Part shown: piece after piece, positions 12,001-24,000 of the stretch
How positions within the stretch are numbered: position 1 is the first letter of the stretch
How the letters are laid out: the number at the start of each line of letters is the position of its first letter
Source: an uncultured bacterium
Lineage (GTDB): Bacteria > Zixibacteria > MSB-5A5 > UBA10806
Length of the DNA stretch: 64,000 nucleotides
Reading direction: 5' to 3'
Assembly (NCBI GenBank): GCA_965541585.1
Contig: CBEUCH010000001.1
Coordinates: forward strand, 288,001 to 352,000
Made by a program: the position numbers

Positions 12001-15000
12001 AATTTTAGCAGGGTTTCAAGCCGATGAGAAGGTGAGACTTCTGGAGATGCCATGGAGCGCTTATTCACAAAGCCTATGCCGAAATCTGATAAGCAGCCTG
12101 GATCCTGAAGTGACTATTTTCTCACCGGATCGCCTGTCGAATATCATGCCCCGAGCCAGAGAGGAGCTGACCCATTCGGAGGATAGGCTCTATTCGACGT
12201 CAATTTGCGGTGGATTTGAAATAGCTGAATTCGGGTCTGAGTTGATGGTCAGGACAATGAGAGAAGTCGTCAACGAGAGGGAGTAAAGTTGAGTTTCACC
12301 GGCAACCTTAAGACTGTATCTTTACCCGATATATTCCAACTGATTTTTTCTTCAAAAAAGACCGGGGTTTTAGATGTTGGCAAGGATAATTCTCTGCGTC
12401 AGATCTACTTCCGGAACGGGTCGTTAATATATGCATCCTCCAATGATGAACAGGATCTTTTCGGCAACCTCTTGCTGAAAAAGGGGAGAATCTCTAAAGA
12501 GGAGCTGAATAAGGTCCTTGTGAGCCAGAAAGAAGGCAAAAGGATAGGTGCGCTGCTGGTGGACAAAAAGCTTTTCACGCGAGAGGAAATATTCGAGTGT
12601 CTGAAAATGCAGATCGAGGAGATAGTCTACGGGTTGTTCGGGTGGAAGGACGGTGAATTCAAGTTCGAGGAGAATCAGGAGCCTCCGGCAGAGACGATCC
12701 AGACTGAACTCAATCCCATGAACCTGATAATGGAAGGTACCAGGCGGATCGACGAATGGGAGGAACTCAAAAAGGTCCTGCCTGCCGATAATACCACCGT
12801 GGAACTCGTGCGCGATCCCGCAATTAAATCCGAGGAACTTAAGATTTCCAAAGATGAAATCATTGTTATGGCTGTGATTGGCTCCGGCAAAGAGATATCC
12901 AAAATTCTTGAAGAGTGCTATCTGGATCGTTTTCTGACGTCGAAAGCGCTGGCAAACCTGTTTCGGATGAACCTGCTCAAACCGGTTAAGAAAGCGGTCC
13001 AGAAGCAGGGAATAGAGGATGAGCAGAAGACACTGGCAGAGGTTTTTGCACAGATATATTTAAGCAACCTTGGATATATTTTCGAGAACCTTCGCGAAAA
13101 GCTGGGAGACAAAGGGGAACGAATCATAGCCGAGACTTTTGAGGAGAACAAGGAATTCTACCCTCTGCTGAGCAGTGGTTTTTCCAAAAACGGCGGGCAA
13201 ATCAACTTCGATTTGTTTATAGAACTTTACAAAAAACTCCCTCAGGAAGCGAGGATCTGGAAAATTGTATCAAATTTCAACGCATTATTAAACGATTATC
13301 TCAACGTGGTCAGAAAGAGTCTGGGGAATAAGATCTACAGGCGATTGCTTTCGGAAATAAAGATCAATATCCAGAACACGATTAATAGGAATAGGCAACT
13401 ATCGCTTAAGTACGGCCTGGAGGAAGAGTTTTCTCGGGCGTTGCGGGATAGATAGGAAATGAATAGATTAACAGTTTATCTTACGGTCGGTTTTATCTTA
13501 TTACACTTTCGCATGGCGGGAGCAGTATCAACTCATACTTATAACCTCGTGCAGGATTCGATATTCTTTATAATTTCTATGGGTTGTCTGATCCTGGCCC
13601 TCAGCATCTTTGTCACCCTCAAAGGCGGCAGCCTCGGAATTCCCTGGATTTTCTTTATCATAGGATTTGCAATAGCGGCCGTAAGCGGCGCCATCCATCT
13701 GCTCGATTTTTTCAAGATCGTGGTTTATGAATACGACTTACGGCTGGCCACTCTTATAACGAGTTGCGGGTCTATGTTATTTCTGTTTATCGGACTTTAT
13801 TTTTATAGAAGAGGATTACAATAATATCCTTTTGACATAACTCTAAATATCCATCAGCGCTTGTCGATAATCTATATGGTTGAATTTAACTGTGGGTGGA
13901 AATATGTTTGAATCCGTAGAATTAGATGATCGCATTGCAAAATGCGAAAAAATCTTGGGCGCTGACGAAAACAGCCAGATTTTCGCAGCGCTTGCCGAGG
14001 CATATCGGAAAAGGGGAGACCTACAAAAAGCCCAGGATGTTTGTCTTCGGGGTCTGACGATTCATCCCAATTACGCATCTGCCAGGATCGTCATGGCCAA
14101 AATATTTATAGCTCATGAAAACTATGATTCCGCGTGGCAGGAACTCCAGAAAGCAACCGCCTCCTCGGGGAGGACGCGCACCATAGACATCCTGGAATCA
14201 GAGATACTGATCCGAAATGGGAAGAAAAGCGAGGCCAAGGCGATTCTTGAAAAACTCTATTCTTCAGACCCTGACGACGAGAGCATTAGGAATCTCATGA
14301 CATTGATCGGAGAAGAAAGACCCTCTCGATTGTCATCCGCAATCGTTATGCCGGATTTCCAGATTGGAAGAAGCAAGAAAAGGAAACTCACCTTATCCGA
14401 GGCGATCAGTATCCTCAAGGTTTTGCCCAGGGTCCTCGGCGTCGTAGTCGTCAACAACCAGGGATTAGCCCTTGAAGGTCGCTTCGATGGTTCATATTCA
14501 AGAGAAGAGGTGGCCGCTCTGTCAAAGGGTATTTATGACATAGCCAGGGCAGGAAGCTTAAGGGTAGGTATGGAGGAGACGAGGGAGATCCTGATAGAGA
14601 CGCAAGCGTCGAAACTCTGGATATTCAACAGGGAGAGTTTTTTGCTGGTCATTTATACCCGTGACGATGTCAGCATGGGTTCATTGAGATTGAAGCTCGA
14701 AGATCTATTGCAGAGAGTAGATCAATTGGGGACGAATGCAGAACAGGAGCGTGCAGGTTGAAAGCGACAAACCAGCTGGACAGGTTCCAGGTTTCGGTTG
14801 AGTATCTCACTGAATACTCTGGCGTCAAGGGGGCTGTCATAGCTGACCGTGAAGGCCTGGTGGTCGCCACCAGTCCCAGGAAAGGTTTTGATGCTGAGAT
14901 TTGCGCGGCCATTGGATTGGACTTAGTCGAGATTATAGACAGAAACCTGGTCAGGCTGATAGATCCTGGATGTAAGTTCCTATCGGTCAAAACCGGTAAG

Positions 15001-21000: not shown

Positions 21001-24000
21001 CAACGGTCTCGATTGCCGAGGGTGAAACCATCACCCAGCCTCTGAAAGAGGTCGGGGTCTTTCCACCAATGGTGACGCAGATGATCTCTGTAGGCGAGAA
21101 AACCGGCGGTCTCGACGAGATGCTCTCCAAGATAGCGGATTTTTACGATGACGAGGTTGATGCTGCCGTAGCTGCCTTAACGTCGATAATCGAGCCAATC
21201 ATCATAGTTTTCATGGGGGCCATGATCGGTTGTATACTTATTGCCATGTATCTGCCGATGTTCGATATAATCGGTCAAATCGGTTAAGAGAACTGCTCCG
21301 AAACCGCTCTTTTCAAATAAGAAGGGAGCGGTTTTTTCATCATGGATAAGTCAAAGAAATATAACCACTCGACGCCCGCCGATCGAAGTTTCTGGTTCTT
21401 ATCATTGCGATCGGTGATAATTCTATTGCTTTTCGGCTCCGGGCTGATCTTCCTGAGACCCTCGGAATTTAGCTATATACTCCTTGGCATTTATGGTTTT
21501 CTGGGAATCGTCTATTTTGTTTATAACGTTTCGGTAAAACATTATTCCGAGGAATTCGTCAGAAGCATCATAATAGCCCAGCTGGTTTTCGAGCTTCTTC
21601 TTGAGGGATTACTGGTTAACCATGTAGGAGGCAGCTTTTCACCGTTTACTTTATTCTTCATCATAAGCATCGTGGTGACCGCACTATATTTCCGTCTGCA
21701 GGGCTCGATACTGGTGGCCACTTCAGCCGGGCTTTTGTATTCTCTTCCTGTATTCTTCGATTTGTCGTTTATCTACGAGGGTCTAATCGAACCTCCGAGG
21801 TTGGCCGGGCTGGGCATCTCATCGGATGAAGCGTTCTATACCGTATTTCTGCATCTTTGCCTGTTTTACTCTTTCTCATTCATATCCGGATACCTGGCGC
21901 AGAATCTCTTCGTCACGACGCGGGAACTGAGGAGATTAAGAGTCGAGACCAGCGAAATCCTGGAGCAGATGCGTTCGGGCCTGCTGACTGTCAATGCCGA
22001 GAAACGAATCGTATATTTCAATAAAGCGGCCGGTGAAATCCTGGGGCTTGATCCCGGAGATGTGCGTGGTGGACATATTCTTAATGTGTTCGGGAAAGGC
22101 TGCAGAGAGTTTCGACGACGACTCGACGCTGCCCTGGATTATAAGCGGGCGGAAGACCGTACGGAAATCATCGTCGAACACCACCGAAGCGGCACAATCC
22201 CGCTTGGACTTTCGATATCCATTATAAGAGACGATGAGGAGGAGTTAAGAGGAATAATAGCTGTTTTTCAGGACTTGACGGAAGCCAAGAAACTTGAGGA
22301 ACGGATCAGGGCGGCCGATCGGCTGGCGGCGGTCGGCCAACTGGCAGCCGGCATCGCTCATGAAATCAGAAACCCGCTGGCATCGATATCGGGCTCGGTA
22401 GAGGTCCTGAAAGACGAACTCAATCCTGACGGTGATAACCTTCGCCTGATGCAGTTGATCTTAAAGGAGTCATCGAGGCTCAACACCATACTGACGGATT
22501 TTCTCAATTTCGCCCGCATAAACAGAAAATCCACAGATAGGAGTGATCTCAGCGTGGTGATTCCAGAGGTGATTGAACTCGCAGCAGGTGATAGCAAGAT
22601 CAATGATTCCGTTGAGATTACGCATAATCTGCATCAGCAAAATATCCTGGTGGCGGGTAGTGAGGATCAGATTAAGCAGATTCTCTGGAATTTGATTTTA
22701 AACTCCGCTCAGGCGATGGGGGGAAAGGTGGAGTGATCCGGATCTCCACCGAGAATTATTGTTCCGACGTGGGTATTCAAATGGTCAAGCTGATTGTAAC
22801 TGATGAGGGCCCGGGCGTTCCTGCCGGGATCAGAGATAAGATTTTCGACCCGTTTTTCTCGACCGGGCAGGATGGCACCGGTTTAGGGTTGCCGATTGTG
22901 GTTCGCCTCGTGGATTGCCTGGAGGGTAAAATCGACCTTGAATCTTCGGCGGAAACCGGCACGAGATTTTCGATATGCCTGCCCATAGAGCAGGCCAAAA
23001 AGAAGAAACCCAAAACGCTGCAAGAAGTTATGACAAGCTGAAATTTCTTCGGTTTTTTCTTTCAGCTATATTTTTTTCTTGACGATTGAACAAATGAACA
23101 GTATATTTCTTTGCAGGTCCATACGGACTCGCGCGGACAACTTATGGATTGGAAATTGAAAATAAAAATAGAGGAGGGCAATCATGGCTAAGGATTTGAC
23201 TGCCAGACAGCGAGAGATCTTCGAGTTTATCAAGGGGATGATTCGCAGTAAGGGGCGGCCGCCATCCATAAGGGAGATCGGGGAGCAGTTCGCCATCCGT
23301 TCCACAAACGGCGTCAGGGCCGTTCTGGAGGCCCTGGAGCGCAAGGGGTATATCCGTCGAGATAGATACACATCCCGGGGAATTGAGCTTTTGAAAGAGG
23401 CCGACGAGATAGTGTCATCGGGGCGCCTCCGGGAGATCTTCTGGGTCGGTCGGGTGGCCGCCGGCACGCCGGTCTGGGCCGAGGAGAATATTGAGGGCAG
23501 TTTCCTCATAGACCGGGAATTCGTGCCGGGCGAGGAGGTCTTCTCGCTGAAGGTGCAGGGCGATTCCATGATCGACGCCGGCATATTCGACGGCGATTAT
23601 GTGCTGGTTAGAAAACAGCCCAACGCCGACCCCGGCGATATGGTGGTGGCGCAGATCGGCGATGAGGCCACGGTCAAGAAGTTTTTCCCCGAGAGAAAGA
23701 GAATCCGCCTGGAGCCGGCCAACACCGATTACGGCCCCATAATCATAGAGAAAAGCACCCCCGGGTTTTCAATCGCCGGCAAGGTGATCGGGTTGTTAAG
23801 GAGGATGTAGGGGGGAGCGGGAATATATGTTATTTGGGGGGTAATGTTTATATTTGGAATTGGATATTTTGTATGTATCGTAGGGGCGAGGTTACCTCGC
23901 CCCTACGGAAAAACCCAAATGGGGGTGTGATATGATTAATATGAGGATTGATATTATTCGGAGGGAATCCCCCTCTGCGGGTCGATCTGTCTGCCCGTAT

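Follow-up and report, generated by a model that had tools for sequence, protein, structure and literature searches.

In an uncultured member of the Zixibacteria, genes for an MglA/MglB switch with additional roadblock proteins form a single row with pilB-pilT-pilC, which encode the type IVa pilus motor, and the arrangement extends across nearly the whole phylum. The window analyzed here is a stretch of 64,000 nucleotides, and Table 1 shows the genes of the row. We rate it somewhat better than an even chance, judging from the sequences, that the row encodes a membrane-tethered MglA/MglB switch that would set the place and time of action of the adjacent pilus motor, most probably by restricting pili to one pole and with no need for a Frz-type signal. 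MglA has been known from a few model species in which its genes are scattered, whereas here an enlarged MglA system stands beside the pilus motor throughout an uncultured phylum. A literature search, which covered little of the subscription literature, found no description of a Zixibacteria system of tailed MglA, roadblocks and pilB.

Table 1. Genes of the comEC-pilS row, with positions counted from the first letter of the window
Gene or product	Position	Strand	Evidence or remark
comEC (DUF4131 + Competence)	9953..12286	+	2 nt upstream of the block
PATAN/DUF4388 protein, 388 aa	12289..13455	+	Pfam E 8e-36; NF053729 39.5 bits, cut-off 38
4-TM membrane protein, 121 aa	13459..13824	+	hydropathy prediction; no family match
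TPR + roadblock fusion, 293 aa	13880..14761	+	TPR+Robl_LC7 domain match
roadblock protein, 148 aa	14758..15204	+	Robl_LC7
roadblock protein, 112 aa	15197..15535	+	Robl_LC7
mglA, Group 1 MglA, 372 aa	15552..16670	+	MglA domain; residues R53, T54, Q82
mglB	16698..17183	+	match to 6izw, E 3e-35, residues 5-161
pilB, type IVa extension ATPase, N-terminal MshEN motif	17234..18925	+	TIGR02538 724.7 bits, cut-off 675.65
pilT, retraction ATPase	18978..20084	+	TIGR01420 504.6 bits, cut-off 319.1
pilC, inner-membrane platform	20088..21287	+	T2SSF x2
pilS-like sensor kinase	21342..23041	+	split over two frames, break near 22720

Conservation of the gene row

All genes from comEC through pilS are co-directional, with intergenic gaps of -8 to 55 nt, and the term operon is applied to this row on the basis of spacing alone; a scan for promoters and terminators yielded no usable signal. 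The initial annotation had placed a PatA-N/DUF4388 protein, three further roadblock proteins, mglA-mglB and pilB-pilT-pilC in one row, and the ORFs agree with it. Its description of the roadblock and mgl genes as fused to pilB-pilT-pilC holds for neighboring genes, but there is no gene fusion. The 121-aa 4-TM gene, the upstream comEC and the downstream pilS had been absent from that annotation. For pilC, the top NCBIfam model was that of Myxococcus PilC (511 bits, under its cut-off of 700). At the frame break in the pilS-like gene, the contig of one close relative has one extra base.

The order roadblock-mglA-mglB-pilB, previously reported for 12 of 12 loci, was found in all 40 loci, which come from 18 families. 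MglA was present in 119 of the 121 phylum genomes, and MglB, for which 41 of 41 genomes had been counted before, was likewise present in 119 of 121 (E<=1e-25). comEC was directly 5' of the block in 38 of the 39 loci where this position was visible, and pilS followed pilC in 38 of 40. In the two loci of family f12 the row is broken, with the block still beside pilB and pilT-pilC-pilS relocated. Both the constant gene order and the arrangement in f12 argue for a switch that acts on the pilus motor.

It could also be proposed that the block is a general hub for polarity or membrane signaling, serving the pole, division or flagellar placement, and that it adjoins pilB without any direct link to the motor. 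The conserved gene order does extend past the block to comEC and pilS, the pil genes of family f17 persist without the block, and actinobacterial conservons use MglA-like GTPases and roadblocks for non-motility signaling (available text of PMC4316618). On the other hand, the outer neighbors vary between orders while the f12 block stays with pilB, the block is kept in families in which flagellin gave no match (f6, f10 and f12), and type IV pili are the target of the characterized Group 1 MglAs. We consider such a hub improbable.

On contig C8 of the genome itself (G000, 98% complete), pilN/O-like ORFs separate pilM from a secretin gene, and pilin genes are on contig C33. PilB/PilT/PilC together with PilM/N/O/P/Q and pilins constitute a type IVa pilus system, and by its gene set G000 has one. 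Since two additional pilus/secretin systems, encoded on C1 and C20, and a flagellum are also present in G000, the target of the block could be another structure.

A pilus for DNA uptake (competence) or adhesion, rather than for motility, could also be what the block controls, with pilus activity coupled to ComEC and c-di-GMP. The upstream position of comEC would fit this idea, as would the flagellin available for movement in 52 of 61 genomes and the MshEN motifs carried by both the PATAN protein and PilB; the reference list of PMC12393216 also includes a study of Thermus whose title concerns MglA/MglB, pili and competence. However, the block contains no competence-specific gene, and comEC remains beside pilB where the block has been lost, indicating that the comEC-pilB adjacency predates or outlives the block. 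A competence or adhesion pilus therefore seems to us quite unlikely as the object of control.

MglA, MglB and the other block proteins

MglA of the window is identical to M. xanthus MglA at 118 of 195 positions (61%, counted on the alignment) and carries a tail of 177 aa, as the first description (61%, a tail of about 180 aa) had it; the tails of the homologues span 122-316 aa. The protein is laid out as a G domain (residues 1-195), a disordered linker and a basic-aromatic C-terminal segment. Residues R53, T54 and T78-V79-P80-G81-Q82 were invariant in 41 of 41 homologues. Group 1 MglAs are defined by an arginine finger beside the G2 threonine and by TVPGQ in G3 (Wuichet and Sogaard-Andersen 2015; available text of PMC4316618), with mglB within four genes, and mglB immediately follows mglA in all 40 loci. 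By its sequence, MglA is a Group 1 member with intact catalytic residues, and the invariance of these residues also argues for a switch of the pilus motor.

MglB aligned over its full length with 6izw, including the C-terminal helix. In Myxococcus MglB, the GAP residues are N37 and R98 and the C-terminal helix is GEF-active (available text of PMC11016934). R99, corresponding to R98, was found in 40 of 41 homologues, and N37 was replaced by D in all 41. Judged by fold, C-terminal helix and R98 equivalent, MglB is of the Myxococcus type.

In all 41 homologues the MglA tail ends in a basic, aromatic segment. The end of the tail had a net charge of at least +4 and at least two F/W residues in 40 of 41 homologues, whereas any inner 22-mer of the tail reached the same charge and F/W content in only 1 of 41. 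The hydrophobic moments of the tail end were uneven (0.22-0.97, and 0.40 here). The charge and the aromatic residues suggest that this segment is probably a membrane anchor, and they speak for a membrane-tethered switch. The tail end would bind the inner membrane as the targeting helix of MinD does; in MinD, too, an NTPase ends in a basic amphipathic segment, an analogy of compositional likeness only.

The PATAN protein was found in 39 of 40 loci, the remaining locus ending at a contig edge. Inserted at residues 58-108 is an MshEN-type c-di-GMP motif, which resembles the c-di-GMP domains of Thermus PilF, and the protein also has a C-terminal domain. The TPR-roadblock fusion was in order in all 40 loci. 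According to the available text of the respective reports, Synechocystis PATAN domains bind PilB1 and PilC (10.1101/2021.06.11.447907), and the TPRs of SgmX bind MglA-GTP, acting upstream of PilB (PMC7668184). Because of these precedents we link the PATAN and TPR-roadblock proteins tentatively to PilB and PilC, and, by its likeness to SgmX, the TPR-roadblock protein is a candidate MglA-GTP effector. The proteins of the block are candidate links between MglA and PilB. Cyanobacterial PixE/PixG share the PATAN domain, in both cases a likely output that binds PilB/PilC; the Zixibacteria PATAN protein differs in having no receiver fusion, in its MshEN-type insert and in being encoded together with a GTPase switch rather than a chemosensory system. 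The PATAN protein was rejected as an orthologue of SopA, a protein that lacks any characterized domain and has been reported from Myxococcales alone.

The block encodes four roadblock domains, and two more are encoded at the unlinked g01444/g01445 locus. Homologues of the 148-aa roadblock protein from other gene orders are 293-357 aa long with an N-terminal membrane domain; at least three TM segments were predicted in 28 of 39 homologues and none in the six from this order. An ORF of 119-160 aa occupies the position of the 4-TM gene in most loci. The 112-aa roadblock protein is well conserved (65% mean column identity), and its profile matched MglC (7ct3) weakly, with an E value of 0.92. Its D23-G24-I25 is invariant and has the spacing of D26-x-I28 in MglC, where D26 is conserved (PMC4719450), but this spacing is common in roadblocks. 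The protein is possibly an MglC-like member (MglB_orphan1 clade). In Ragulator/LAMTOR, too, several roadblocks and a membrane anchor surround a small GTPase, an analogy at the level of fold only.

The RomY-like gene and its loss together with the block

The match of g01444 to RomY_Nterm (E 4e-5, residues 14-81) was reproduced, with 24 bits against a cut-off of 50. Homologues of g01444, earlier counted in 58 of 61 genomes, were found in 118 of 121; G068 and G092 have the block with no homologue by profile search. RomY_Nterm selected these homologues in 114 of the 121, whereas none of 14 controls gave a match; the best score among the 121 genomes was 42.9 bits, so that none reached the cut-off. 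When the search was reversed, the profile of the g01444 N-domain retrieved P0235 at E 2.4e-9, and this protein reaches 50.3 bits with RomY_Nterm, above the cut-off. Homology of the g01444 N-domain to RomY-N is supported by these profile comparisons. Its closest relatives outside the phylum were REC-containing regulators (33 of 150 representatives), none of them a recognizable RomY, and RomY-N-like domains are also present in REC-PATAN regulators, so that g01444 is RomY-like by homology and no more than a candidate orthologue. Searching with P0235 returned three unnamed proteins and no named RomY, and the metagenome search with P0214 returned generic receiver matches only. The fold search with the g01444 model was dominated by the roadblock half; the N-domain reached a Z of only about 5, and no RomY entry was among the matches. 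Two NCBIfam models numbered beside RomY_Nterm proved to be unrelated families.

M. xanthus RomY (MXAN_5749; NF053858) and g01444 share an N-terminal domain of about 85 residues (model positions about 8-80), a length of about 190-220 aa, a gene unlinked to mglAB and co-occurrence with MglA/MglB. In g01444, unlike RomY, a folded roadblock domain makes up the C-terminal half, so that the protein is a fusion of a RomY-N-like domain with a roadblock; RomY's C-terminal portion was modeled at low accuracy and has a partly conserved motif (available text of PMC9481161). This fusion lends Rosetta-stone support to the unsolved RomY-MglB interaction. RomY-like domains now extend beyond the 28 RomY-bearing species of the published table.

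A further difference from RomY is g01445, a roadblock plus helical-domain gene, which was directly behind g01444 in 52 of 52 genomes where it is present. Its proposed core status in the phylum does not stand (52 of 121 genomes), as g01445 was found in none of families f3 (45), f4 (8), f9 (2), f11 (11) and f17 (1). Its roadblock, called degenerate, is divergent in sequence with its fold intact (Z 14.2). Identity of the C-domains of g01445 and the PATAN protein was rejected (hhalign probability 0.4%).

In family f17, neither MglA nor g01444 was found in any of the three genomes, a co-loss that counts as one evolutionary event, with two of the genomes 52% and 88% complete. In G089, pilB is directly after comEC in mid-contig, the block having been deleted between them. 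Since f17 retains pilB-pilT-pilC, the pili genes do not need the block. Joint loss of the MglA switch and the RomY-like gene in this lineage is supported, and the absence of both points again to a switch of the pilus motor.

Possible polarity switching and comparison with known systems

From the gene row and g01444, the initial annotation had proposed a Myxococcus-like module with front-rear switching. The Group 1 MglA/MglB linked to a type IVa pilus motor bear out the first part; the switching fared less well. In a full Myxococcus-type system that reverses twitching, g01444 would be RomY, and the roles of RomR and MglC would fall to a REC-linker-helix protein and the 112-aa roadblock, respectively. 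Besides the wide distribution of g01444 and the MglB features described above, CheW in 81 of 121 genomes speaks for such a system, as does the RomR-like candidate (G000 C1:144053-145123, plus 18 homologues), which has a receiver, an acidic, unstructured linker and a helical C-terminal region. This architecture was found in 101 of 121 genomes (in 90 near full length) and was not found in G089.

RomR-C has an invariant Trp and Pro (PMC12719032; available text of PMC3441718). Among the 19 RomR-like candidates, a Trp anywhere within the last 60 residues was found in 2 and the phospho-Asp in only 5. The Trp and Pro, whose spacing we take to be W-x-x-V-P, were absent in that form from all 19. No CheW was found in G000 or in 40 of the 121 genomes, most of which retain the block, and a weak screen for RomX, which used short motifs and visual inspection of 60 of the 540 small ORFs, found no candidate. 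The MglC match is weak, a membrane-anchored MglA would suit relocation from pole to pole through the cytoplasm less well, and the S1 Table of the RomY paper pairs RomY with the unipolar, MglB-less Bdellovibrio. Myxococcus-like reversal of pilus motility is weakly supported by these findings, and we judge a complete reversal system unlikely.

The M. xanthus module (MglA, MglB, MglC, RomR/RomX and RomY, with SgmX/FrzS/SopA in the pilus branch) shares with that of Zixibacteria the MglA residues R53/Q82, the MglB C-terminal helix, a RomY-N-like domain, extra roadblock paralogues, a TPR protein and a likely type IVa pilus output. In contrast to M. xanthus, the Zixibacteria genes are in one row with pilB-pilT-pilC, MglA has a tail that ends in a basic-aromatic segment, the RomY-like domain shares one protein with a roadblock, and G000 has six roadblock domains instead of two, with TM-roadblock and 4-TM members; RomR is recognized in G000 by architecture only, and neither RomX nor a chemosensory system was found there. 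In the available text, Thermus HB8, which has no chemotaxis genes and seldom changes direction, shows MglA-dependent pilus control at one pole like that proposed here for the Zixibacteria. The Bdellovibrio MglA/RomR/Bd2492/CdgA hub at the invasive pole likewise shows one-pole control of pili by MglA, a TPR partner and c-di-GMP input, but lacks MglB. The same texts report no tailed MglA or such a gene row in either organism.

In the membrane-tethered switch that we favor, the extra roadblocks would pair into a membrane-held scaffold, with the TM-roadblock of most families and the 4-TM protein, and would localize MglB. The roadblock domain of g01444 may dock its RomY-N-like domain on this scaffold, where it would stimulate the GAP activity of MglB, clearing MglA-GTP at that site. 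At sites that retain MglA-GTP, PilB/PilC would be engaged by the TPR-roadblock and PATAN proteins, possibly under gating by c-di-GMP. A bolder proposal, which we hold to be doubtful, is a self-organizing polarity oscillator, bound to the membrane and assembled from Myxococcus components with eukaryote-like wiring: an anchored GTPase, a TM-held hetero-oligomeric roadblock scaffold, a roadblock-docked RomY-type co-GAP and a pseudo-receiver RomR-like landmark would switch pilus polarity without RomX or Frz. A bacterial GTPase of the Ras-like kind that is anchored to the membrane and has a scaffold of several roadblocks would bear on the origin of the membrane platforms of eukaryotic GTPases and roadblocks.

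A search for the range of the system gave 274 matches, of which the best 80 were mostly titled Zixibacteria. In the Atlas, clusters of 286-292-aa MglA were commonest in Fibrobacterota and Krumholzibacteriota, which we note as a lead only.

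Gene row and its retention across the phylum

Twelve co-directional genes run from comEC to a pilS-like kinase gene in the window with intergenic gaps of -8 to 55 nt, and we infer co-transcription from this spacing; the block itself extends from the PATAN gene to mglB. In the alignment of the window MglA with M. xanthus MglA, 118 of 195 residues are identical (61%), and the window MglB aligns with M. xanthus MglB over its full length, including the C-terminal helix. The 4-TM protein matched no family in the domain-model searches. The MshEN-type motif of the PATAN (DUF4388) protein scores barely over the cut-off and is missing the Arg with which the first repeat usually begins, so that binding of c-di-GMP by this protein is uncertain.

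Features and their coordinates
Feature	Location	Coordinates	Description
comEC	window	starts at 9953	first of the twelve genes
PATAN/DUF4388	window		second gene
4-TM	window		121 aa, four predicted TM segments
TPR+roadblock	window		fourth gene
roadblock	window		148 aa, stand-alone
roadblock	window		112 aa, stand-alone
mglA	window		seventh gene
mglB	window		eighth gene
pilB, pilT, pilC	window		ninth to eleventh genes
pilS-like kinase	window	21342-~23041	twelfth gene
lexA, IS200-like transposase ORF, dinB-like polymerase	window	23184-26055	after the block
g01444	contig C6 (locus L001)	144188-144760 (6189-6761)	RomY_Nterm match
g01445	contig C6	144757-145503	N-terminal roadblock, helical C-domain
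dprA- and comF-like genes (by eye)	contig C6 (locus L001)	149432-150891 (11433-12892)	strand opposite to g01444/g01445
RomR-like candidate	contig C1 (locus L195)	144053-145123 (6054-7124)	receiver, acidic linker, C-terminal helix
flagellar gene set	contig C3	~12600-71000	apparently complete
pilus/secretin clusters	contigs C1 and C20	270199-286015 and 32661-43017	one includes a pilT and a pilB, the other is MSH- or T2SS-like

MglA and MglB were each found in 119 of the 121 phylum genomes searched and were missing from the same two. We then inspected 14-20 kb around mglA in 40 of the 119 genomes, hand-picked to span 18 families. The order roadblock-mglA-mglB-pilB, reported in the initial annotation, was present in all 40 loci, a count that measures retention among kin and not independent origins. 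The PATAN gene headed the row in 39 of the 40 loci (the remaining locus stops at a contig edge), comEC lay immediately upstream in 38 of the 39 loci where this was visible, and pilT-pilC-pilS came after pilB in 38 of 40. In family f12 (two loci) the row was broken after pilB, with pilT-pilC-pilS located elsewhere in the one inspected. The block thus moves together with pilB; that it forms a hub unrelated to the motor is decidedly improbable.

In three genomes (loci L044, L063 and L071), pilB and/or pilT, pilS were fragmented, probably by assembly errors. A frameshift near 22720, immediately 5' of a G run, breaks the pilS-like gene of the window in two; the contig of one relative (96% identical) has one extra base at this site, three other runs with shallow cover showed no insertion, and the break is either an assembly error or strain specific. 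lexA followed pilS in all 6 loci of the order of the source genome and in one other, with an intervening ORF in one locus.

The RomY-like gene and its partner

The RomY_Nterm (NF053858) match of g01444, a gene unlinked to the block, was reproduced (E 4e-5, 24 bits, cut-off 50). Run blind on six-frame genomes, the model picked out homologues of g01444 in 114 of 121 (best score in the phylum, E 1.7e-10, 42.9 bits); none of the 121 reached the cut-off, and none of 14 control genomes was matched. A profile of the Zixibacteria N-domain recovered P0235 (E 2.4e-9), a protein that scores 50.3 bits on RomY_Nterm. From the blind matches and this reverse search, homology of the g01444 N-domain to RomY-N is well supported.

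The predicted structure of g01444 (pLDDT 89.8) separates into an N-domain of four strands plus a helix and a C-domain. The C-domain is a roadblock (Z 10.6 and rmsd 3.3 over 95 residues against 7yh1; profile E 1.2e-6 against 7f8m; one homologue over the Pfam cut-off), and the gene is a RomY-N-like::roadblock fusion. According to PMC9481161, M. xanthus RomY-N stimulates GAP activity and contacts MglA and a single MglB protomer in a structural model, so such a fusion would be expected if the N-domain acts on roadblock dimers.

Among the best 150 representatives with the N-domain, 84 combined it with a roadblock, 33 with a receiver domain and 20 with the g01445 C-domain; DUF4388 was matched, mostly weakly, in 18 of 30 representatives scanned. 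Rather than marking RomY, the domain is a mobile component of a network of PATAN, receiver and roadblock proteins, and its presence in receiver and g01445-C-domain proteins counts against simple orthology of g01444 and RomY. Zixibacteria are absent from the 32 species in S1 Table of PMC9481161, which records RomY in 28, including Bdellovibrio (without MglB). By the cut-off, g01444 is a relative of the RomY domain and not a family member.

P0200, P0208, P0209, P0210, P0214, P0219 and other proteins have a REC-PATAN-RomY-N-like layout ending in TPR or the g01445 C-domain, and we found no publication on this family. Several Zixibacteria (loci L182-L189) encode a ~375-aa TPR protein in an exopolysaccharide export locus; the start of this protein is weakly RomY-N-like, matching the local profile at E values between 6e-6 and 0.6. 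The dprA- and comF-like genes lie ~4-5 kb from g01444/g01445.

The N-terminal roadblock fold of g01445 was clear (Z 14.2, rmsd 2.0 over 105 residues). Its description as a core partner did not hold, as searches found g01445 in only 52 of 121 genomes, with no match in families f3, f4, f9, f11 and f17. Where present, it lay directly behind g01444 (52 of 52), a pairing accounted for by other proteins in which its C-domain is joined to a RomY-N-like domain.

In G089 (family f17, 96% complete), ~290 nt separate comEC from pilB-pilT-pilC-pilS at a site well inside a 134-kb contig, with no block gene there; searches of this genome found no MglA, MglB, g01444, g01445 or RomR-like gene. The other two f17 genomes (52% and 88% complete) yielded no MglA and no g01444. 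This joint absence, a single evolutionary event, ties the unlinked g01444 to the block; G068 and G092, which have the block and no g01444 match, count against the tie. G053 lacks mglA, mglB and a close pilT together, which we read as an assembly gap.

Membrane features and a proposed switch

All 41 MglAs examined carry a poorly conserved tail of 122-316 aa (median 177). Over its last 22 residues the median net charge is +8 and the median number of F/W is 3, compared with -1.3 and 0.3 per 22 residues in the tail interior; a charge of at least +4 with at least 2 F/W occurred in 40 of 41 tail ends and in an internal window of 1 of 41 tails. The tail end resembles the MinD-type C-terminal amphipathic membrane targeting sequence (PMC8155659) and is a putative membrane anchor, with an uneven hydrophobic moment (0.22-0.97). 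Homologues of the 148-aa roadblock beyond the order of the source genome are 293-357 aa long, and at least 3 TM segments were predicted in 28 of 39 homologues and in none of the 6 from that order.

With slightly better than even confidence, we lean toward a membrane-tethered MglA/MglB switch. MglA-GTP would be kept at the membrane by the tail end, while a roadblock scaffold would position MglB and the RomY-N-like domain would boost it, clearing MglA-GTP from one zone. Outside that zone, the TPR-roadblock and PATAN proteins might relay the signal to PilB/PilC, an output step that leans by analogy on SgmX (PMC7668184), Bd2492 (PMC3983030) and cyanobacterial PATAN domains (10.1101/2021.06.11.447907). 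Control by the block of a competence or adhesion pilus, for which flagellin in 52 of 61 genomes speaks, is quite unlikely.

Comparison with the Myxococcus system

The RomR-like candidate is so called by its layout, the receiver-linker-helix arrangement of RomR (PMC3441718). Its linker carries a short conserved aromatic-acidic motif, and the preceding gene looks, by reading, like a rhomboid protease. With 16 candidates scored per genome, its profile exceeded the background of generic receivers in 101 of 121 genomes, with a match close to full length in 90; the candidate was not found in f7 or G089. The pseudo-receiver retains the phospho-Asp in 5 of 19 candidates, and the RomR-C Trp, which binds MglC according to PMC12719032, is absent. 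A weak screen of the genome under study gave no candidate for RomX, which is described as bridging RomR-REC and MglA-GTP (10.1101/2024.02.20.581209 and PMC13408092). Because an MglC-clade roadblock is coupled as a second one in some Group 1 loci (PMC4719450), the 112-aa roadblock may be MglC-like; its match to MglC was weak (E 0.92).

No CheW match was found in the genome under study, which has the apparently complete flagellar gene set and would thus carry flagella but no chemotaxis system, and CheW was found in 81 of 121 genomes. PMC3441718 reports that 16 of 26 genomes have MglA/MglB/RomR but no Frz, and PMC12393216 describes Thermus HB8 as a species without chemotaxis genes whose pili show a monopolar bias and which rarely changes direction. 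A true Myxococcus-type reversal system is unlikely. The Myxococcus-type module proposed initially stands for its GTPase/GAP core, whereas a full reversal system is not supported: this is a real, phylum-wide variant of the MglA/MglB polarity module, whose core, judging from sequence, would work like the Myxococcus GTPase/GAP. Coupling of Group 1 MglA to one or two roadblocks, sometimes next to a PATAN gene, is already published (PMC4316618); our literature search found no paper on the row, the tailed MglA or the RomY-N::roadblock fusion. Sequence look-ups for g01444 and the RomR-like gene, which can overlook distant relatives, retrieved no match. Besides the pilus motor genes of the row, the genome under study carries the two other pilus/secretin clusters and a third pilT on contig C5.
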